A stretch of 64,000 bases of DNA from an uncultured Bdellovibrionales bacterium (GTDB lineage: Bacteria; Patescibacteriota; Minisyncoccia; Moranbacterales; UBA1568): positions 21 through 64,020 of the forward strand of contig CAYTED010000001.1 in assembly GCA_964436855.1 (NCBI GenBank), given 5' to 3'. Below the pieces are notes generated by a model. The model was given only the letters and a program-made list of their open reading frames with translations. It made no database searches and had not been told where the DNA came from. The position numbers and the translations under genes were made by a program. Of this stretch, positions 3,747-58,175 are shown in pieces (within the stretch, counting starts at the first letter, position 1; the number at the start of each line of letters is the position of its first letter).

Positions 3747-4418
3747 CTATACGGTTGCATTGTCAGTGCACGATCTTCGAGAAAAAAACTGTGCGACAAA
3801 AACTCTCGCTCTCTCTCCTAAAGTCGGAGTAAATTCGTGGCGCATATGAGGAAGGGACACTTCGAGCATCTTTTTCAGGTACACGATCGCAACTTCAAGA
3901 TACAGCCCTGACATAGCATGGGTTTCGATAATATTCGTATTCTTTCCTTGCGAAAGATCTCCATGTCGAAATTTCTCGAGTATGCCTTCCAGCACATCGA
4001 TAATCTGATCGTAGCGCATCTCGAAAATATCCCAACCAAAAGAAAGTGGATGACCAAGTCGATCGATCATCACTACTCCAAATGGCAATCGAGACTCACC
4101 TTTTTCATCAAAAAGGGAAAGCCTTTCCGCAGCTTGAAATGATCGACAGAGATAGAAATGAGCTGACTCAGAATACCTCACAAGGCGCGGCCGATGCTTC
4201 TTGAAATCATCAACGATGTCCTTCTCAAGACAAGCGATCATGCCTAAAAGAATATTCAGAAACCCATCTCGGTTCATCAGGGCGATTCTCCGGCCAAGCT
4301 CTCGATTGGAGAAAAAGTACAACGCACCCGGAACCTTGACCGGATGGAAGCGCAGACGATCCTGTTGTAAAGAAACCATGCGACATTCTCCTTTTACAAA
4401 TTGAGGAAATGACGACAA
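3747..4418 (-). CDS. Hypothetical protein.
   Basis: A 223-aa ORF with ordinary coding composition. I recognise no family. The true start may be an internal Met (MVSLQQ…). Confidence 0.35.
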   Translation of the reverse strand: MSSFPQFVKGECRMVSLQQDRLRFHPVKVPGALYFFSNRELGRRIALMNRDGFLNILLGMIACLEKDIVDDFKKHRPRLVRYSESAHFYLCRSFQAAERLSLFDEKGESRLPFGVVMIDRLGHPLSFGWDIFEMRYDQIIDVLEGILEKFRHGDLSQGKNTNIIETHAMSGLYLEVAIVYLKKMLEVSLPHMRHEFTPTLGERARVFVAQFFSRRSCTDNATV

Positions 4419-4538: not shown

Positions 4539-5813
4539 TTACGGTAGATAATTCTTCGGATTGACGGTCGCGCCAATTGGAATATCTTTCAAACTTGGAA
4601 CAATCTTGGACGGAACCACCTCAAACGACTTTGCAGAAAAAACAGTGAAGTGGAGATGCGGACCGGTCGAATTTCCGGTATTGCCGGATTTTGCAATAAC
4701 ATCTCCTTGCTTTACCTTATCGCCTCGTGATTTTTTTACGACACTCAAATGACCATACATCGTAACAATACCATTACCATGATCAATCGCCATCCAGCGA
4801 CCGTACGCATACCGACCATTATTACCGGTTGCTACCACTTTCCCATCCTCCGCCGCCAAAACATCACTTCCAACCGGCATCCCAAAATCAAGTCCATTAT
4901 GAAATCCGCTCTTGTATCGACCGGAACTCACTGCAAAAGATGTTTTTCCATATCCCTGTGTCAGAACTACTTTCTTTACCGGATACTCAAGAAGGCCTTT
5001 TTGAAAAGCAGGCATATCCTTCAAATTCAGCTCGCCAACTTTTCCGGATTCAAGATCTTCGATTTCACTTTCGATTTCTTCGCGTTCTTCTTCGAGCTTA
5101 TCAATCAGTTTGTCATACTTCTGCTCTTCGGCTTTTGTTTTTTCGAGCAATTGCGCCTTATTTTCCTTTGAACTCTCCAGATACTCGTTCCTATCGGCAA
5201 GTTGCAGTCGGAGTGTATCCGCTTCAATTTTCTTTTCCTTTATCACGTCATACTCCGCCACGACGGACTTTTTCAGCGACTCAAGATCGTCGATCGCCAT
5301 CTCGATCCGCTCACTCGTCTGATTCGCCGCCTCCGCGGTCGAAAGAAAAAGACTCACCTCCCCCGCCGAAAGGAAAAAGGGGAGTTCTTCTTCGAGACTG
5401 CCAACGGAATAGGAACGAAACAAGTCAAGGAGAATGTTTTTCCGTTCGCGAATCACCGCCTCTTTTTCGGCAATACGCGTTTCGAGTACTGTCATTTCCG
5501 ATTCAAGAGATGTAAGCTTCGATTCGTTTTCAGCGATATCTTGTTCAAGTTGTTTCGCCTGCGCTTCGAGTGTTGTAATTTGTACGGAAAGATTCAGACG
5601 TTGTCGCTCTTTAATATCGGAAATTTTCTGGTACGCGTTGATCTTGTCAATAATCTCCTGTAGTTGATCCTGCTTTTTCTCGAGGTCATTTGCGGCAAAA
5701 ACACGCTCCGAAATCATTGAGAGACACGGAAAAGAAAAGGCTAGAACAAGAGCGATAACGCCAAAAAAATGCAGAAAATGTTTTTCGTTTTTCTGTTCTT
5801 TTTTCATAGACAT
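4539..5813 (-). CDS. M23 family metallopeptidase with an N-terminal membrane anchor and a long coiled coil (EnvC/LytM-like murein hydrolase activator).
   Basis: The C-terminus carries the M23 motifs HNGLDFGMPVGSDVLAAEDGKV…HGNG…GNTGNSTGPHLHF. The central region has heptad-rich LEAQAKQLEQDI… repeats. Confidence 0.8.
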   Translation of the reverse strand: MSMKKEQKNEKHFLHFFGVIALVLAFSFPCLSMISERVFAANDLEKKQDQLQEIIDKINAYQKISDIKERQRLNLSVQITTLEAQAKQLEQDIAENESKLTSLESEMTVLETRIAEKEAVIRERKNILLDLFRSYSVGSLEEELPFFLSAGEVSLFLSTAEAANQTSERIEMAIDDLESLKKSVVAEYDVIKEKKIEADTLRLQLADRNEYLESSKENKAQLLEKTKAEEQKYDKLIDKLEEEREEIESEIEDLESGKVGELNLKDMPAFQKGLLEYPVKKVVLTQGYGKTSFAVSSGRYKSGFHNGLDFGMPVGSDVLAAEDGKVVATGNNGRYAYGRWMAIDHGNGIVTMYGHLSVVKKSRGDKVKQGDVIAKSGNTGNSTGPHLHFTVFSAKSFEVVPSKIVPSLKDIPIGATVNPKNYLP

Positions 5814-50785: not shown

Positions 50786-51946
50786 TTATTTGAAAAGATC
50801 TTTTGCTTTCCGATATTGTTCGATATACCGCTCCGCAACATTCCTCCAACTCATTGATTCCGCTTTTATGCGACTCGCCTCGGCAAGAGAGCGGCAGAGA
50901 GCGGAATCATTCACGAGTCGCTCCAGTTTTTCCGCGATATCAACTGTTGATTTCATTTGAATTTCAAAGCCGTTTTTCCCCTCGAGAAGCACTTCGTCCG
51001 ACCCGCCGGTACGCGTTACAAGAAGCGGGAGTCCTGCCGCTGCCGCCTCAAGCATCGCATTACTCATTCCTTCGTTCATCGACGGAAGAATGAAGGCATC
51101 CGCTTTGGCATACCACTTTGAAAGTTCCTCGTGCGGAACACGTCCGATAAACTTCACCTGATTGGAAATACCGTGTTCTTTTGCAAGCGCTTCCAGTGAT
51201 TCTCGTTCGTGTCCATCACCGATAAGCAACGCTTCGACATTCGAAATATTCTTTTCTTTTTTAAGCGTCGCGAGCGCGGCGATAAGATACCGCAACCCCT
51301 TTCTCGGCGTCAGTCGCGAAGTTGAAATCACCCGAAATATTCCATCCGTACTCCCCGTACTCGGCGTGAATTCCGCGATATCGATTCCGTTCGGAATGAT
51401 ATCCATGCGCTGTTTCGGATTCGTCTGTTCGGCGAGCCGCTTGAGTCCCGCGCTTGCAGAGATCACCGCCGCCGCATCCTTCCAGATTCTCCGAATCGCC
51501 GGCTTGAGCGCATGATAAAGAAAAGAAAAACGCTCGCTAAATCCGGGGACATCCGCCCCGCGAAGCGAGACAATATACGGCACACGATACTTCTTGGAAA
51601 GCCGCATCGCCATATATCCGCACGGTACGGAAAAAAAAGCATGCACGAGATCAAACTTCTCTTTTCGAAGAAGCTCATTTGATTTTTTATAACCCTCCCA
51701 CGTATAAAAAAGCAAATCCTTTACAGATTGAAAGTGAAGATTTTTTTCATTCTTCCCGATAGGAACCGAATGAACAACTACCCTTCCGCCAATGCATTCA
51801 TCGTGAAATCCCGCATCAACCGACGAGGTGATGAGGTGCACTTCAAGATCGGGAATTTTCGTGTATTCACGCAAGAGATACTGCGTCGCATTTCCCGCTC
51901 CGCCCCCAAGCGGCGGATATTCGTAATTCAAAAAGAGGATTTTCAT
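50786..51946 (-). CDS. Glycosyltransferase family 4.
   Basis: The N-terminus is KILFLNYEYPPLGGGAGNA and the C-terminus carries the GT4 EX7E region. Confidence 0.8.
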   Translation of the reverse strand: MKILFLNYEYPPLGGGAGNATQYLLREYTKIPDLEVHLITSSVDAGFHDECIGGRVVVHSVPIGKNEKNLHFQSVKDLLFYTWEGYKKSNELLRKEKFDLVHAFFSVPCGYMAMRLSKKYRVPYIVSLRGADVPGFSERFSFLYHALKPAIRRIWKDAAAVISASAGLKRLAEQTNPKQRMDIIPNGIDIAEFTPSTGSTDGIFRVISTSRLTPRKGLRYLIAALATLKKEKNISNVEALLIGDGHERESLEALAKEHGISNQVKFIGRVPHEELSKWYAKADAFILPSMNEGMSNAMLEAAAAGLPLLVTRTGGSDEVLLEGKNGFEIQMKSTVDIAEKLERLVNDSALCRSLAEASRIKAESMSWRNVAERYIEQYRKAKDLFK

Positions 51947-51969
51947 AGTTTTAAGCCATTTCAAGGATA

Positions 51970-51998
51970 TTGACAAACATCAGAATACGCTCTATACT
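51970..51998 (+). promoter_or_regulatory. Consensus sigma70 promoter: TTGACA, 17-bp spacer, TATACT.
   Basis: The -35 element is at 51970-51975 and the -10 at 51993-51998. No plus-strand gene lies downstream. Confidence 0.45.
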
Positions 51999-52002
51999 CT
52001 AT

Positions 52003-52056
52003 GTATAAATGGGCTTCGGCCTCCGAGACCCCGCCTTACGGTGGGGTCGTTTTTTT
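52003..52056 (+). ncRNA. Candidate roughly 55-nt small RNA: two hairpins (ggc-UUCG-gcc; gaccccgcc-uuac-ggugggguc) followed by U7.
   Basis: A promoter and an intrinsic terminator bracket a short non-coding segment that is convergent with the 3' end of the mazF-like gene. Confidence 0.35.
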
Positions 52057-52447
52057 ATACAGATACCGATTTCACTGCTTGCTGTATCTTCTCAAAATCG
52101 CCTTCCGATATCATACCAAGTTTTCGCAAAAGCCGCTTACTACTCAAGACACGGATTTGCGAAAGAACAAGATAATATTCTTTGTCACGCCTCGTAATTT
52201 TATAGAAAAACTTTCCCTTTTTCGGTCGACTTGTTTGCGGCACCGAAAGAAAAAGGTATTTGTTGAATTTTTTCAAGATAAGAATCGGTCGCTCGTAATT
52301 ATCGTTCTTCCCATCTTGTTCAAATCCGATATTGACACCAAGCGCACACCACCAGAGTTCCCGCTCATAAAAATACGGGATATGTTCATCCGGAATGTCA
52401 TTCAAAAACTCCTTCTTTTTACACCAACCCAAAAAATCTTTTCCCAT
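52055..52447 (-). CDS. MazF/PemK-family endoribonuclease toxin-like protein (orphan).
   Basis: It aligns with B. subtilis EndoA/MazF. GFEQDGK…ERPILIL matches GSEQGG-RPVLVI. SVPQTS matches AAITAQ. VLSQIRVLSSKRLLRKLG matches LLEQIRTIDKQRL. Confidence 0.65.
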   Translation of the reverse strand: MGKDFLGWCKKKEFLNDIPDEHIPYFYERELWWCALGVNIGFEQDGKNDNYERPILILKKFNKYLFLSVPQTSRPKKGKFFYKITRRDKEYYLVLSQIRVLSSKRLLRKLGMISEGDFEKIQQAVKSVSV

Positions 52448-52451
52448 AATT

Positions 52452-55400
52452 TTAATAATACACCTTCACGTTCCCCTTCTCCGTCGTAAGTCCCGGAATA
52501 ATCATTCCGGAAATCTTCTTCCGAACGGGACGACGATCCGTGTTATCATCACCCTCATCGGATAAATCTCTCGGTTTCTCCATTATGACAGTTTGATGTT
52601 TCTTTGGAAGGTAGTGCGATTCAAGCTTCACTGTATCGGTTCGGATATGCGAGGCAAAGAGCGCATATTCGTTTGTGTCTTGCCGGAGACGGAGTATCCA
52701 TTTGTAATCGAGGGTTGTTTTCGGAAGATTCGCCGAAACACCATCGTACGCGATCGATTTGAACTCGATCGAAATCCGACCGAAACGATCTCTTTCCTTT
52801 TCAAAAGAAAGTTCGGTTCGATGACCAGCTGCATCGGTAAGAGTAACGGTCTTTATTTCTTTTTGCTTCTCCTTGTCATTCCGAGCAAGTCTTCGAGTTG
52901 AGGAATCTCTAAATTGAGGTCCCTCGACTTCGCTCGGGATGACAGAATCCATCATCACTACTGAAACAGATTGACTGAAAGCATCCATTCCGACGATATC
53001 AAGTTTCTGTACTTCGGGATTGAAAGAAATTTTTGCTTCAGGGGCGGTCTTGTCAATCTTGATTGTTTGGATCTTCACTTCTTCCTTGTTTCCCATTTGG
53101 TCGGTCGAGAAATACTGAATAGTCGCAATCCCTTCTTGAGAAAGAACAAACGGATCGGTATATATCCTCCATGTCGTACCACTATCAAATGAGTATTCTG
53201 TCTTTTGAATACCGGTTCCATTTTCATTGTCAGCTGCGGAAAGCGCGATCGAAACATCACTCGTATACCAACCATTTGCGCCTTCCGTTCCGGAGAGAGA
53301 AAGCGTTGTGACTGGAGGAATAGTATCAGTCTCCCCTCCTCCGGTAACCGTATCGCCTTCAATCGCAATCGCTTGTTCTTCTTCTGCCAAGAGAGTGGCC
53401 GTTCCTCGGAGAGTCGCCGTCGATTCTTTCGCTTCGCCCATATCCGGATCTTCGGTAATCTTCGTCGCTTCAATACGATAGTTACCCTCTCCCGTTCCTT
53501 GGGTCAAGATCTTGTATTCGCCATCTTCCGGATTCGGAATGGTGATGAATTCGTTTTTAGTCTGATAACCGGTATAGAAAGCGCCTTCAATTTCGTTGAT
53601 GATGTCTCCTGTTTTGAAGTTCTTTCCGATCCGTTTTCCGGAAGGGGAAACGACTTGAATGTCAATGGGAGAGAAAACCTTAATCAAGAAAATGTTCGGC
53701 ACATTTACTTCTATGATTTCTTTGCATTCTGATCGACCTGACAATTCGTGGAACACGAGACATCGCGCCCTACTCGGCAGCTCGGTATGTTCAGCATCGA
53801 GAATTTCTTCCTTATCTGAAGGAAGAGCTTCAGCACTTGAGAGAGGGACGGTGCCATCTCCGGAAGAAAAAGAGAATCCATTTTCAGGATTATCGGAATA
53901 AAAATCAAGAGGCATTCCATTCTCCCACTTACCCAACTTAGAAGTATGGATGAGCTTTATTTTTTCAATTGATTTTTGAATCGACTGTTTGCCAATAACA
54001 CTCAAACTTCTTACGCCGTTAAGCGCATTAACATTCATTGTTAAATTTTCCAAAAACTCATTCCTCGAATAATTCTCCGGGTACGATCGCATTGTTTCAC
54101 TTCCAAGATCAAACAAATAATCATAATCCGGAAGCAGTTGTTTTACCGAAAACACAGCTCCACGAATATATTCATACAGACTCGAGTATCCCGAGTGTTC
54201 CGCTTCAATCGTAAAGTGATGCTTGAGGACACTGTCGAGCAAATCTGTCCCAAACTCTCCTCCCTCCCACATTAAGTAAGCTTTTGGCGCACCCCGATGC
54301 GGCGTACCGAGCGTTACGAGCTGATCAACATCACTCTGATACGCATCGCCTTCGATATATTCCCTTGCTACCAACCCGCCCATCGAATGTGCGGCAATAT
54401 CGACCTTTTCCGATCCGGTTTCATTTTTGATGTCCGTGATTTTTTGTTTCAAATCATTCGCCGTATCGCGATTGTCCCGTTTCCAATCGTAAGGAAAGAG
54501 AAAGAGGTTCCTCCCTTCTTCATAGCCGTTTTTCTTGAGTGATGCGACAAGATCGTCGTAAATATGAAGAATCGGATCAAGCACCCATTCTCCGTTGTCA
54601 TTCTTTTCCGAGCCAAGAATCCCGGGAACGATGATGAGCGGATCGGCCAAGAGATCATTTTGTCGGAAACCGGAGTATGCGACCGTTCCCGAGACTTTTT
54701 TCCCTTCACCAAAATGACCATAGTCATTCGATACATCTCCCCGCGGACCGGTGATATCGCCGTAATAATTATTGCGAAGCGAGACGATCGGTTCGCAAAC
54801 TGCTCCTTCCGGACAGCTTCCATCTCCAATCGAAACCGCTTCGTTCGCCTGACGGTAGAAATCCTCGGTATTTCCGATCGGGATATTGTTGTCGCTTCGC
54901 TTGTACGGAATATAGTACGAAAAATTCGAGTTAATGATAGAAAGAGTATCCGCTCCCTCACCCCACCGGTATGGGTATTCCGCGCGAATGTCGGAAGAGA
55001 GACTCCCCTGGAAAAGGGAATTCTCAATCCGAAGCCGCCCTTCGAAAAAATGAAGGGTCGGGAGTCCGGGAGTCGTTCCGAAATCACCTCCGGCTTCTTC
55101 ATTCTCTTTCCCGCCGTCAAGGAAGTGAACGTGTCGGAAAAGAGATGGGTCATTTTCGACGCTCCCTTGGAAAAAAACTTGGTAGTGCGCGGTTTCGTCT
55201 TTCGGAGCGAACACAATCGGATTCGTTTCCGTTCCGTTTGCAAGTACCCGCCCACCCTGAATCTGGAAGAGTCCGTATCCGCCAAAAGAATCGGAAAGGG
55301 TGATATGGACGCCTTCTTCGATCGTAAGTGTCGCACCGGATACGATCACTGGCTTGTCGAAAGAAAGTTCCGAGTCTTTGATCCAGACAGTATCCTCGAC

Positions 55401-55502
55401 AATGGAGATAACACTTTCGTCTTCGGGAACTTCCTGCGCGAAGACGACTGTGGGACAAAGTAAAACAGGAACCGAAAGAATTCGGAAGAGATTACTTCGC
55501 AT
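52452..55502 (-). CDS. 1016-aa secreted multidomain protein: signal peptide, beta-helix-like N-terminus, alpha/beta-hydrolase (lipase/esterase, GxSxG = AHSMGG), and C-terminal Ig-like/OmpL47-type barrel domains.
   Basis: The signal peptide is MRSNLFRILSVPVLLCPTVVFA. The lipase elbow is IAAHSMGGLVAREY. The C-terminal domain is TTLSLSGTEGANGWYTSDVSIALSA…TEYSFDSGTTW…. Confidence 0.6.
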   Translation of the reverse strand: MRSNLFRILSVPVLLCPTVVFAQEVPEDESVISIVEDTVWIKDSELSFDKPVIVSGATLTIEEGVHITLSDSFGGYGLFQIQGGRVLANGTETNPIVFAPKDETAHYQVFFQGSVENDPSLFRHVHFLDGGKENEEAGGDFGTTPGLPTLHFFEGRLRIENSLFQGSLSSDIRAEYPYRWGEGADTLSIINSNFSYYIPYKRSDNNIPIGNTEDFYRQANEAVSIGDGSCPEGAVCEPIVSLRNNYYGDITGPRGDVSNDYGHFGEGKKVSGTVAYSGFRQNDLLADPLIIVPGILGSEKNDNGEWVLDPILHIYDDLVASLKKNGYEEGRNLFLFPYDWKRDNRDTANDLKQKITDIKNETGSEKVDIAAHSMGGLVAREYIEGDAYQSDVDQLVTLGTPHRGAPKAYLMWEGGEFGTDLLDSVLKHHFTIEAEHSGYSSLYEYIRGAVFSVKQLLPDYDYLFDLGSETMRSYPENYSRNEFLENLTMNVNALNGVRSLSVIGKQSIQKSIEKIKLIHTSKLGKWENGMPLDFYSDNPENGFSFSSGDGTVPLSSAEALPSDKEEILDAEHTELPSRARCLVFHELSGRSECKEIIEVNVPNIFLIKVFSPIDIQVVSPSGKRIGKNFKTGDIINEIEGAFYTGYQTKNEFITIPNPEDGEYKILTQGTGEGNYRIEATKITEDPDMGEAKESTATLRGTATLLAEEEQAIAIEGDTVTGGGETDTIPPVTTLSLSGTEGANGWYTSDVSIALSAADNENGTGIQKTEYSFDSGTTWRIYTDPFVLSQEGIATIQYFSTDQMGNKEEVKIQTIKIDKTAPEAKISFNPEVQKLDIVGMDAFSQSVSVVMMDSVIPSEVEGPQFRDSSTRRLARNDKEKQKEIKTVTLTDAAGHRTELSFEKERDRFGRISIEFKSIAYDGVSANLPKTTLDYKWILRLRQDTNEYALFASHIRTDTVKLESHYLPKKHQTVIMEKPRDLSDEGDDNTDRRPVRKKISGMIIPGLTTEKGNVKVYY

Positions 55503-55776
55503 ATTTGTTTCGGAAAAAATTTACAAGGAGTGAAGCGAGAAGAACGAGGTTGAGAAGTGGCCAAATAGTAACAACAAAAGAAACAAACCATTTTAAGTCA
55601 TAAAAAGAATAAAATAGAGATCGTCTATCAAAATAAAAAATCACATTCGCAAAAAAAGAAAGGACAAGCGTGCCGAGAAGATATTTTTTCTTCACGAGGA
55701 GCGCGATTCCGATACAAAGAGGGATGAGATAGAACATGAACATAATCGTAAAATTGTCCGCTGTACTTCCAAACAT
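55492..55776 (-). CDS. Small membrane protein, hypothetical.
   Basis: The 94-aa product has 3 TM helices. It overlaps the start of the giant secreted-protein gene. Confidence 0.3.
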   Translation of the reverse strand: MFGSTADNFTIMFMFYLIPLCIGIALLVKKKYLLGTLVLSFFANVIFYFDRRSLFYSFYDLKWFVSFVVTIWPLLNLVLLASLLVNFFRNKYAK

Positions 55777-55852
55777 AATTTTTCTTTTTACAATTTATCC
55801 CCTTCTACTCTACCACAAAAAACCGCCTCGGTTTCCCGAAGCGGTCGATCGT

Positions 55853-57160
55853 TTACACTCCGATTCCATGATACGTGAAGCCTTCTTTTTCCGCTTCTTT
55901 TCGTTCGAAAATATTGCGGCCATCGATAATGACACGCTCCTTCATACGCGAAGCGAGTTCCGGATACTCTGCGGTCCGAAATTCATCCCATTCTGTGCAC
56001 ACAACAAGCGCATCAACCCCGTCCACTGCCTCATAAGAATTTGTGCAATACTGGACTCGTTTATCAGGGAAAACTCCCTTGAAGTTCTCCTCCGCAACAG
56101 GATCGAATGCGCGAACCTTTGCCCCGGCCTTCAAAAGTTCTCCAATCACATACTGCGCCGGCGCCTCGCGCACATCGTCGGTTCGCGGTTTAAACGAAAG
56201 TCCCCAAATTCCAATTGTTTTTCCCTTCAAATTTTTAAAATGTTTCTTGAGTATTCCAATCGGACGAAGTTTTTGTTTATCATTGACCTCATCCGCCGCA
56301 CGAATAATCGAAAAATCAAAGTCATATTCCTTGCCGGTTTGCATAAGCGCCTGCACATCCTTTGGAAAACACGAGCCACCATATCCAATACCCGCATAGA
56401 GAAAACGCGACCCGATTCTCGTATCCGCCCCCATACCCTTTGCCACCTCTTTGATATTCGCACCCGCGAGTTCGCAGAAATTCGCCATCTCGTTTGCGAA
56501 GGTAATTTTCACAGCAAGAAACGCATTCGAGGCATATTTGATAAGTTCAGCCGAACGGATATCCGTCACTATCACCGGTCGCCCTGCGCGAGCAATTGGC
56601 CGATAGATTTTTTCCATGATTTCCTTGGCACGCTCGGTCGCAACCCCGACAACCACGCGATCAGGATTGAGAAAATCCTTAATCGCAGCCCCTTCGCGAA
56701 GAAATTCCGGATTGGAAACAATATCAAATTCATATTTTCCCTTGGACGCGTGCGTCACAATATCCCGAACTCTATCCGCCGTACCAACCGGAACCGTTGA
56801 TTTGTTCACGAGAATTTTATATCCATTCAAATTTTTCCCAAACGCCTCCGCAACCGCATGCACATACTGCATATCCGCTTGCCCTGTCTTCTTGTCTTCC
56901 GGCGTCCCAACAGCACTGAATACGACTTCGGCGGATTTTATGGCCTCGGAAATAGACGACATAAATGAAAGGCGATCTTCCTTGACATTTTTCTCTACCA
57001 ACTCCTCAAGCCCGAGTTCGTAAATCGGCATGATGCCTTTTTTCAATTTTGCAATTTTCTTCTTATCAATATCGGCACACACCACCGTATGCCCCAGTTC
57101 TGCCATACATGCTCCCGTCACCAATCCAACATATCCCGTACCGATAAAAGCTAATTTCAT
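55853..57160 (-). CDS. ugd: UDP-glucose 6-dehydrogenase.
   Basis: It begins MKLAFIGTGYVGLVTGACMAELGH… and carries the catalytic Cys region and a UDPG_MGDP_dh C-terminal domain. Confidence 0.85.
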   Translation of the reverse strand: MKLAFIGTGYVGLVTGACMAELGHTVVCADIDKKKIAKLKKGIMPIYELGLEELVEKNVKEDRLSFMSSISEAIKSAEVVFSAVGTPEDKKTGQADMQYVHAVAEAFGKNLNGYKILVNKSTVPVGTADRVRDIVTHASKGKYEFDIVSNPEFLREGAAIKDFLNPDRVVVGVATERAKEIMEKIYRPIARAGRPVIVTDIRSAELIKYASNAFLAVKITFANEMANFCELAGANIKEVAKGMGADTRIGSRFLYAGIGYGGSCFPKDVQALMQTGKEYDFDFSIIRAADEVNDKQKLRPIGILKKHFKNLKGKTIGIWGLSFKPRTDDVREAPAQYVIGELLKAGAKVRAFDPVAEENFKGVFPDKRVQYCTNSYEAVDGVDALVVCTEWDEFRTAEYPELASRMKERVIIDGRNIFERKEAEKEGFTYHGIGV

Positions 57161-57236
57161 ATTTTCATAAAGCACGAAACATAGAGCACAAAACAAGCAC
57201 GAACTGTTCTATACCGTAGTCCCATGTTGTATTTAA

Positions 57237-58175
57237 TTATTGTATCCTCATTTCTCGGACGCTATAATTCATCCGTCGATGCATCTTGTAATAATTTCGC
57301 ATCACCATATCCGCAAGTAAGCCGGAAATAAAGAGCTGAAGCCCTACCAGCACGAAAAAGACACCGATAAGCGGCCAAATACGATCGGCAATCGAGGCTC
57401 CAAAAAACATTTTTTCTACAAACATCCACGCTAAAATCGCAACGCCGGTCATCGAAAGACACAATCCGGCTCCCCCAAACAAGTGAATAGGTCGATACGA
57501 ATACTTCCGCCAGAACCAAATCGATATCATATCGACAAACCCTTTGAGCGCGCGCTTCCAGTTATATTTCGTCTTCCCGTGCAGTCTCGGATAATGAGAA
57601 ACTTTCACTTCAGTCACACGAAAACCCTCCAACTGAAGAAGGGCCGGGATAAAACGATGCATCTCGCCAAAAAGATCGAGATCTTCAAAACATTCCTTGC
57701 GATACGCCTTCAGGCTGCACCCGGAATCATGAATACCGTCTTTTACGAGAATGAGGCGTAAAATATTCGCACCCCGCGAAAAGAAACGCTTCATAAAAGA
57801 ATCTTTCCGCTTCCAACGCCACCCGGCAACCACATCATACCCTTCATCAATCTTTGCAAGAAGAAGCGGGATATCGTTTGGATCATTTTGAAGGTCGCCG
57901 TCAATCGTAACTATAATATCACCCGATGAAGCCTTGATACCGGCATCAAACGCCGCAGTCTGACCAAAATTTCTCCGAAATATAACCAGCTTGAGCGGCG
58001 ATAAGCCGCGACACAATTCAAGCGTCTTATCTTTTGACCCGTCATCAACAAAGACAATTTCAAACGGCTTTTCAATTTTTTGCAAACTCGCAAGAATTCG
58101 ACGATACAATTCCTGCACATTCCCCTCTTCATTATATAAGGGAACAACAACCGACAAATACGGTTTTCCTTCCAT
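57237..58175 (-). CDS. GT2 polyprenyl-phosphate glycosyltransferase (GtrB/ArnC/Dpm1-like) with C-terminal TM helices.
   Basis: It contains LSVVVPLYNEEGN…VFVDDGSKDKT…TIDGDLQNDP and two C-terminal TM helices. Confidence 0.8.
   Translation of the reverse strand: MEGKPYLSVVVPLYNEEGNVQELYRRILASLQKIEKPFEIVFVDDGSKDKTLELCRGLSPLKLVIFRRNFGQTAAFDAGIKASSGDIIVTIDGDLQNDPNDIPLLLAKIDEGYDVVAGWRWKRKDSFMKRFFSRGANILRLILVKDGIHDSGCSLKAYRKECFEDLDLFGEMHRFIPALLQLEGFRVTEVKVSHYPRLHGKTKYNWKRALKGFVDMISIWFWRKYSYRPIHLFGGAGLCLSMTGVAILAWMFVEKMFFGASIADRIWPLIGVFFVLVGLQLFISGLLADMVMRNYYKMHRRMNYSVREMRIQ

Follow-up and report, generated by a model that had tools for sequence, protein, structure and literature searches.

In a 64,000-nucleotide (nt) window of contig CAYTED010000001.1 (positions 21 to 64,020; assembly GCA_964436855.1, GTDB order Moranbacterales of the Patescibacteriota), a mazF-like gene is followed directly by a convergent gene for a small RNA (sRNA), and homologous genes carry such an RNA at the same position almost without exception. 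Comparative evidence makes it probable that the 130-amino-acid open reading frame (ORF) and the RNA of about 52 nt constitute one toxin-antitoxin-like mobile cassette that is specific to the Patescibacteria (candidate phyla radiation, CPR) and very common there. We likewise lean towards the RNA being the antitoxin, whichever of two modes of action applies. An earlier inspection of the DNA without database searches (the sequence-only reading) had described the gene as an orphan mazF coupled to the gene of a giant secreted protein; the layout is confirmed, and the orphan status holds at the protein level but not overall, as the sRNA gene is its partner. The features of the locus, in window positions, are as follows.

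52055 to 52447, minus strand: mazF-like gene, 130 amino acids; ATG at 52447, TAA at 52057-52055
52005 to 52056, plus strand: convergent sRNA, about 52 nt; start predicted from the -10 box, end at the U-run
51970 to 51998, plus strand: sRNA promoter; -35 box TTGACA at 51970-51975, 17-nt spacer, -10 box TATACT at 51993-51998
52011 to 52022, plus strand: sRNA hairpin 1 (GGGC-UUCG-GCCU), predicted fold with a covarying stem
52021 to 52027, plus strand: sRNA linker CUCCGAG, near-invariant, candidate protein-recognition element
52027 to 52056, plus strand: sRNA hairpin 2, the intrinsic terminator; 9-bp stem 52027-52035/52040-52048, then G and U7
51965 to 52451, no strand: approximate extent of the inserted mazF and sRNA cassette, by comparison with the empty site in the related locus L102
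52448 to 52454, minus strand: junction of the giant and mazF-like genes; stop codon TAA at 52454-52452 and 4-nt spacer AATT at 52451-52448
52452 to 55502, minus strand: giant surface-protein gene, 1016 amino acids, the host gene that forms the context of the cassette; stop codon TAA at 52454-52452
50786 to 51946, minus strand: GT4 glycosyltransferase gene, host gene downstream; start ATG at 51946

The 130-amino-acid ORF is predicted to encode a homologue of MazF-fold endoribonucleases. It matches the Pfam family PemK_toxin (PF02452) over residues 30-128 with E=3.3e-10 and 40.6 bits (cut-off 23.1), and the profile and the fold both bear out the MazF/PemK homology suggested by the sequence-only reading. 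PemK_toxin is the sole family matched at E<=0.1 in the Pfam scan, with no match to ToxN/AbiQ, CptN or TenpN. A profile of the MazF-like family matches Bacillus subtilis EndoA/YdcE in the PDB (E=8e-5), and PF02452 is present in all but one of the 120 homologues among the matches listed. The AlphaFold (AF2) model of the protein has a pLDDT of 88, and the nearest structures to this model found by Foldseek are the MazF proteins of Staphylococcus aureus, Mycobacterium tuberculosis and B. subtilis (E about 1e-7), with that of Escherichia coli also among the best neighbors. The best 50 Foldseek PDB matches of the model are all MazF, PemK (MoxT) or YdcE, with TM-scores normalized by target length of 0.65-0.78, and ToxN is absent among the structural matches listed. 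As modeled, the protein adopts the SH3-like beta-barrel of the MazF/Kid fold. In the family alignment R53-P54 is invariant and a P70-x-T/S motif is conserved; R53 and T72/S73 align with R25, at the end of the beta1-beta2 loop, and T48 of B. subtilis EndoA, which we take to be the catalytic Arg and Thr of MazF. By this alignment the catalytic Arg and Thr/Ser appear to be retained. Two features set the family apart: a clade-specific N-terminal helix (residues 5-16) in which W8 and K12 are invariant, and an unusually conserved beta1-beta2 loop. The protein has hundreds of close homologues, nearly all of them in Patescibacteria (Moranbacteria, Nomurabacteria, Paceibacterota, Saccharibacteria and others), and a profile search puts the family at 1,930 clusters at 50% identity (E<=1e-10). 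One cassette-bearing contig, L012 (CAZHVT010000002.1), is labeled as a metagenome-assembled genome of an uncultured Gammaproteobacteria member while all others are Patescibacteria; this exception may reflect wrong binning or a rare transfer beyond the phylum.

The mazF-like gene has no recognizable promoter, and its position suggests expression by read-through transcription and translational coupling from the upstream gene. It starts 4 nt after the stop codon of the giant gene on the same strand, and these coordinates agree with the sequence-only reading. The same reading had seen no separate promoter, and a consensus scan, the only kind of promoter search applied, likewise gives no sigma70-like site in the roughly 580 nt of minus strand that precede the ATG. 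On the mazF strand no terminator U-run follows the hairpin, and the consensus promoter scan of the region reveals no promoter-like site belonging to the GT4 gene. The gap between the mazF stop codon and the GT4 ATG is 108 bp, as had been proposed; a longer GT4 ORF with a TTG start at 51976 exists, but alignment to the orthologous locus L102 supports the ATG at 51946.

This 108-bp 'spacer' contains the convergent sRNA gene. It holds the best plus-strand promoter match of the region, with 11 of 12 consensus positions, and the best intrinsic terminator of the region is also on the plus strand, a G+C-rich 9-bp stem (52027-52048) followed by G and seven U. The RNA reads 5'-AUAAAUG, hairpin 1, the CUCCGAG linker, hairpin 2, G and U7, and its predicted fold of -24 kcal/mol (z=-3.2) consists of two hairpins with the CCGA of the linker unpaired. 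One G.U pair of hairpin 2 would become an A.C mismatch if the mazF strand were the one to fold. The terminator U-run overlaps the mazF stop codon by 2 nt. A covariance model of the RNA (R1) matches 52005-52055 with 55.2 bits (E=6e-17), its sole match in the window. Rfam at gathering thresholds gives no match anywhere in the window, and at E<=10 over 51900-52500 it gives chance sub-threshold matches only, such as nse_sRNA and PyrR; the pemK RNA motif did not appear among the Rfam matches. The sRNA thus represents a structured RNA family that is absent from Rfam. A mechanically called 62-amino-acid ORF (52009-52197, plus strand), which starts at the AUG of the sRNA and runs antisense through mazF, was rejected as a gene because its start codon varies between loci (variants include AAACGG, AGUGG and AUUGCC) and the sRNA terminator interrupts the reading frame. 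Five MazF-like proteins in the database (P0038, P0049, P0052, P0094 and P0109) have C-termini reading '...GSSEAEATN', the translated antisense of the sRNA (CTCGGAGGCCGAAGCC); these ORFs extend into the RNA gene, either because the two genuinely overlap or because gene calling missed a stop codon.

The RNA accompanies the mazF-like gene across the family. We sampled 11 genome loci, 80 metagenome loci and several contigs encoding the closest MazF homologues, and built the covariance model from 20 loci. An RNA element was seen 3' of the mazF-like gene in every locus checked by eye, and of 101 MazF-like genes from 96 sources, 85 have a covariance-model match to the RNA at their 3' end, on the strand opposite the gene. 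The modeled RNA 3' end falls between -4 and +8 nt from the stop codon in about 60 of these 85 cases. The 16 genes lacking a model match comprise 11 with a second type of RNA, three with divergent forms, one at a contig end and one gene fusion. Overall, at least 96 of 100 evaluable homologous genes in Patescibacteria metagenomes carry an RNA, either of about 52 nt or the variant of about 90 nt, at the same position. The fusion is the only evaluable homologue with no RNA: at L031:2260-3139 the MazF-like domain is fused, in frame, with 190 or more additional C-terminal residues that run off the contig, and no sRNA is found downstream.

Structure and sequence of the RNA are both conserved. In a covariation test whose alignment was fitted to the model, 91.2% of cells were paired compared to 70.3% in shuffles and about 50% in slid controls, and 188 cells were changed on both sides where shuffles predict 63. 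At the middle position of the hairpin-1 stem, 43 sequences have a G-C pair and 22 have C-G. There are 36 G.U pairs as against 17 A.C pairs, which favors the sRNA (plus) strand as the one that folds. A near-consensus sRNA promoter is present in almost every locus; 16 aligned loci show no variation in TTGAC or in the TA...T of the -10 box. In 70 distinct type-1 RNAs, conservation of the CUCCGAG linker is 90-97% at each position. Together with hairpin 1 and the two promoter boxes (-35 and -10), this linker is kept across toxins that are only about 45% identical, while the sequences of the promoter spacer and of the hairpin-2 stem are not conserved across loci. The type-2 RNA, clearly related to the first, is about 90 nt long with three hairpins, in the order 5'-ACAAAYGGC-UUCG-GCCUCG (hairpin 1 and UCG), a second hairpin, an A-rich CAGAAAA-CAAAAA stretch and the terminator, a long hairpin embedded in the final 31-38 nt of the toxin gene. 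Type 2 is found downstream of the MazF match at L040, L044, L047, L058, L060, L072, L073, L079, L080, L083, L095 and L097, an assignment made by regular expression, inspection and one MAFFT alignment as the covariance model covers type 1. Type-2 RNAs are confined mainly to one clade of the toxin tree and RNA type follows toxin phylogeny.

The mazF-like gene and the sRNA together are a mobile cassette of about 0.5 kb that is present or absent between close relatives. The closest relative of the locus, L102, encodes a giant protein 79% identical to that of the window, and there the giant stop codon is followed by 29 nt and then the GT4 ATG, with no mazF-like sequence and no match to the RNA model. 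The flanks of the two loci align base for base in the absence of the cassette, so the intervening roughly 490 bp (approximately 51965-52451) are an insertion. The GC content of the cassette (0.41) is the lowest in the neighborhood, with flanks at 0.44-0.50. In a second locus with a giant orthologue (L004, 47% identity) the MazF cassette lies two genes downstream, after an ABC-2 permease. The pairing of giant gene and mazF, whose conservation in related genomes had been proposed as a check, is consequently not kept. Across 96 loci, 75 have an upstream gene in the same orientation, and in 33 of these 75 the gap is at most 30 nt. The 34 closest upstream neighbors are unrelated to each other and include RNA polymerase beta' (RpoC), PheS, MreB, a PilB-type ATPase, UvrB, DprA, type I restriction-modification, ABC and GT4 genes; cassettes are also found after wzm. 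Because the cassette is absent in L102, displaced in L004 and next to unrelated neighbors elsewhere, the 4-nt coupling to the hydrolase gene is incidental. Such coupling would be how the cassette gets expressed wherever it is inserted and not a functional partnership.

Tandem cassettes occur in L001, L074 and L100. In L001 (1577-3420) the second cassette, in tandem, and an MNT/HepT pair lie between wzm and wzt, and NYN-domain genes are found downstream of cassettes in L004 (5537-6405), together with an unannotated 86-amino-acid ORF, and in L016 (3463-4032). These three regions look like small toxin-antitoxin or defense islets in polysaccharide-export operons. Among the loci examined, toxin-only copies are essentially absent and sRNA-only copies exist: L058 and L104 each have an sRNA copy that scores in full (about 51-53 bits) but is not immediately preceded by a MazF-like gene. 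The L104 copy (4551-4603, minus strand) has its own TTGACT/TATAAT promoter and follows a Bro-N-like gene; the L058 copy (3906-3959, minus strand) directly follows the stop codon of a gene for a 1278-amino-acid surface protein, and a further MazF cassette comes shortly after it. Both copies may be antitoxin RNAs left as orphans, or what remains after a toxin gene was deleted. Viral contigs (IMG/VR) yield one locus with the protein profile and 120 matches to a 16-mer RNA core, approximately the chance number by a hand estimate, and in 769 kb of unrelated viral DNA preselected for this core the covariance model finds nothing above 28 bits. The cassette is therefore not notably phage-borne in IMG/VR.

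No protein antitoxin accompanies the gene, as had been noted before any search. A Pfam scan for MazE, PemI, AbrB and RHH families gives no match in 50 ORFs of 25-140 amino acids between 50000 and 54500, covering about 2 kb around the gene, nor in 21 small non-overlapping ORFs across the whole window, and no antitoxin family is found among the 34 upstream neighbors at other loci. Tandem repeats resembling a ToxI array are not found in 51000-56000. Solo MazF genes and other solo toxins have been flagged by comparative genomics since 2009, and an RNA antitoxin has been suggested in general terms. In the PubMed Central (PMC) open-access and bioRxiv literature, a body of incomplete coverage, we found no account of a convergent sRNA conserved alongside a MazF-family toxin.

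Taken together, the comparative evidence favors control by the convergent sRNA, which had been one of several options raised at the outset. In the proposed mechanism the host gene, here the surface lipase-like gene, would drive the toxin by read-through and translational coupling, and the constitutively made sRNA would serve as its antitoxin. The favored mode is that the RNA binds the RNase directly as a pseudo-substrate, in a type III manner. Direct binding is preferred because the CUCCGAG linker and hairpin 1 are retained even between toxins as far apart as about 45% identity, which purely cis-antisense pairing would not need. That the conserved part of the sRNA lies opposite non-coding DNA also counts for direct binding, as do the N-terminal helix with W8 and K12 and the highly conserved beta1-beta2 loop of the toxin. 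Antisense pairing with the read-through mRNA may add to control: as the GT4 gene has no promoter of its own, the operon mRNA is likely to cross the sRNA gene and would then carry a perfect complement of about 50 nt, with pairing unavoidable in such an arrangement. Whether a single-copy convergent sRNA of about 50-90 nt that neutralizes a MazF-fold RNase represents an undescribed toxin-antitoxin class, between types I and III, is a question on which we find the evidence evenly balanced. If this class exists, a promoter-less toxin would depend on transcription and translation of the host operon while the antitoxin RNA has its own consensus promoter, and the cassette would be among the commonest mobile ones in Patescibacteria (about 1,900 protein clusters at 50% identity) and would explain many 'solo' MazF annotations; to both of these corollaries we give the same even weight.

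Several points weigh against this interpretation. Support for toxicity, for the RNA and for their interaction is comparative throughout, and co-inheritance is no proof of interaction because it is expected for any linked adjacent pair. Covariation in hairpin 2 is expected of any conserved terminator, in an alignment that was fitted to the model. The type-2 RNA, which has no CCGAG linker and overlaps the ORF by 31-38 nt, fits antisense control at least as well as direct binding. The cassette falls under neither the type III nor the type I definition, having no upstream repeats, a PemK instead of a ToxN toxin and no small membrane peptide. A defense role is undocumented, and PADLOC returned no match for either protein.

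One alternative, possible but on the unlikely side, keeps the same cassette and makes the sRNA a purely cis-antisense, type I-like antitoxin: it would pair with toxin or operon mRNA that reads through its gene, an enzyme such as RNase III would cleave the duplex, and the message of mazF would decay from the new 3' end with no contact between RNA and protein. Convergent genes that overlap at their 3' ends, by 2 nt in the window and by 31-38 nt where the RNA is of type 2, speak for it, as does a layout that matches the Gram-positive type I pairs Fst/RNAII, TxpA/RatA and BsrG/SR4; moreover, neither a mazF-strand U-run nor a GT4 promoter was found, so that the mRNA would hold the perfect complement of the sRNA. 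However, antisense pairing requires no fixed sequence, and the 90-97% conservation of CUCCGAG and of hairpin 1 with its UUCG loop, next to spacers and hairpin-2 stems that are randomized, is not what it would demand, particularly as the conserved part faces non-coding DNA. UUCG tetraloops also make poor kissing loops, and complementarity of the sRNA to the translation start of its cognate mazF is no better than to non-cognate starts (-17.5 vs -17.3 kcal/mol, p=0.30). It is less probable still that the pair is a ribonucleoprotein outside any toxin-antitoxin function, with the RNA as substrate, guide or cofactor of the MazF-like enzyme, or that the pair regulates its own operon. The obligatory pairing and conserved RNA motif would fit such a complex, the clade-specific helix and conserved loop suggest a dedicated RNA ligand, and toxicity of the ORF is itself judged by comparison. 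Presence or absence between close relatives, insertion behind unrelated housekeeping genes, tandem copies, MNT/HepT and NYN neighbors and the apparently retained catalytic Arg and Thr all point the other way, and sRNA-only remnants with no toxin-only copies form an asymmetry that is typical of selfish addiction modules and not of a housekeeping ribonucleoprotein.

A protein antitoxin encoded in trans elsewhere in the genome, with the sRNA as an unrelated regulator or insulating terminator, is very improbable. Solo toxins with trans-acting partners are documented, as in Myxococcus xanthus, where MazF-mx, the one solo MazF studied, has no adjacent mazE and the distant protein MrpC is its surrogate antitoxin, and our inspection covers 64 kb of the genome; the small ORFs of the window and the 34 upstream neighbors elsewhere nevertheless contain no antitoxin family, and a near-universal, position-fixed sRNA would be left unexplained. 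The sequence-only reading had also considered contact-dependent toxin delivery and co-expression with the hydrolase; a functional link of either kind, including co-expression by design, is not supported. We assign hardly any probability to the RNase being a functional partner of the secreted hydrolase, whether as an effector exported along with it or as one delivered on contact. The 4-nt same-strand gap and the large surface protein upstream of the L058 cassette are in its favor, but the closest orthologous locus, L102, has no MazF gene, in L004 MazF is two genes away from the giant gene, and the other upstream partners are cytoplasmic housekeeping genes. MazF is furthermore a separate ORF with no signal peptide seen by eye and no fusion to a delivery domain, and no immunity-type ORF was found after it, so that CDI/Rhs-type (contact-dependent inhibition) delivery finds no counterpart here. 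A domesticated MazF-fold RNase, the remaining suggestion, is unlikely because the gene behaves as a mobile cassette, present or absent in close relatives and sometimes tandem, with an obligatory RNA partner.

The giant host protein combines several of the domains that had been assigned to it. The alpha/beta hydrolase core stands, as residues 288-478 match the LCAT, PGAP1 and Lipase_2 families (Pfam) and include a GHSMGG motif, and so does the OmpL47-type barrel domain at residues 746-816 (E=7e-17). An N-terminal beta-helix is weakly supported: the N-terminus has no Pfam beta-helix match, orthologues give 'faint' Beta_helix_4 matches, and the AF2 model suggests a series of short strands at residues 30-280. 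The signal peptide is a judgment by eye. Proteins of this type are common in Moranbacteria and other Patescibacteria. Gene order in L102 is the same as in the window, namely GT2, UDP-glucose dehydrogenase, a 94-amino-acid ORF, the giant gene and GT4. The hydrophobic 94-amino-acid ORF (window 55492-55776, minus strand) overlaps the giant-gene start by 11 nt and belongs to no Pfam family; ORFs of 90-123 amino acids occupy the same position upstream of giant orthologues in L102, L103 and L104, and it is probably a conserved membrane partner of the surface protein. Between GT2 and UDP-glucose dehydrogenase, L102 (2894-3268) contains a 124-amino-acid gene of the 23S_rRNA_IVP/bAvd family where the window has only a 40-nt spacer (57196-57237). 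The operon therefore has two small insertion polymorphisms, and glycan operons of this kind appear to accumulate small cassettes.

Should the sRNA prove to be the antitoxin, the textbook type II toxin MazF would also exist in a widespread RNA-controlled form that blurs the type I, II and III classes, and one large group of 'solo toxins' would have a concrete answer. The label 'type II toxin-antitoxin system PemK/MazF family toxin' is misleading for these proteins. The RNA adds a new structured family, with more than 90 examples and clear covariation. The cassette is a compact selfish element in essential operons (rpoC, pheST, mreB, wzm/wzt) of minimal genomes with few known defense systems, and its design of a host-gene-driven toxin and an antidote with its own promoter suggests a coupling of cell fate to host operon expression.

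Compared to known systems, the toxin shares fold and family with type II MazEF, PemIK and Kid-Kis, and its putative catalytic Arg and Thr/Ser can be aligned with theirs. In contrast to these modules, the cassette has no MazE/PemI-type gene and instead a convergent sRNA gene downstream, relies on host operons in place of an autoregulated toxin promoter, and encodes a toxin with an extra N-terminal helix and an unusually conserved beta1-beta2 loop. As a protein antitoxin was not found, it is not a type II MazEF module. MazF-mx of M. xanthus is similar in being a mazF with no adjacent mazE, but it is a single domesticated gene under a distant transcription factor, whereas the gene described here belongs to a multi-copy mobile cassette with a linked RNA.

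The type III systems ToxIN, CptIN and TenpIN resemble the cassette in combining a small structured RNA antitoxin, here a candidate, with a toxin of endoribonuclease fold. ToxN has a Kid/MazF-like fold and is inhibited by direct binding of its RNA. Type III antitoxins are tandem repeats located upstream on the same strand, with a terminator between them and the toxin gene, and are processed by the toxin, while the RNA here is a single copy encoded downstream in convergent orientation, between a promoter and a terminator of its own, and the toxin matches PemK and not ToxN. With no upstream repeat array and no ToxN-family toxin, the cassette is not type III. The convergent type I pairs of Gram-positive bacteria, Fst/RNAII (pAD1 par), TxpA/RatA and BsrG/SR4 (B. 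subtilis), share with it convergent genes with adjoining or overlapping 3' ends, a strong constitutive promoter for the antitoxin RNA and a duplex that could form at the 3' terminus of the toxin message. In type I the toxin is a small hydrophobic peptide of under about 60 amino acids, in contrast to a soluble 130-amino-acid protein of RNase fold; the ORF overlap here is 2 nt, and the RNA sequence is conserved beyond antisense need. The cassette is not type I because its toxin is not a small peptide. By analogy it would work most like a hybrid of types I and III, in which the toxin fold is known and the kind of partner and the layout are new.

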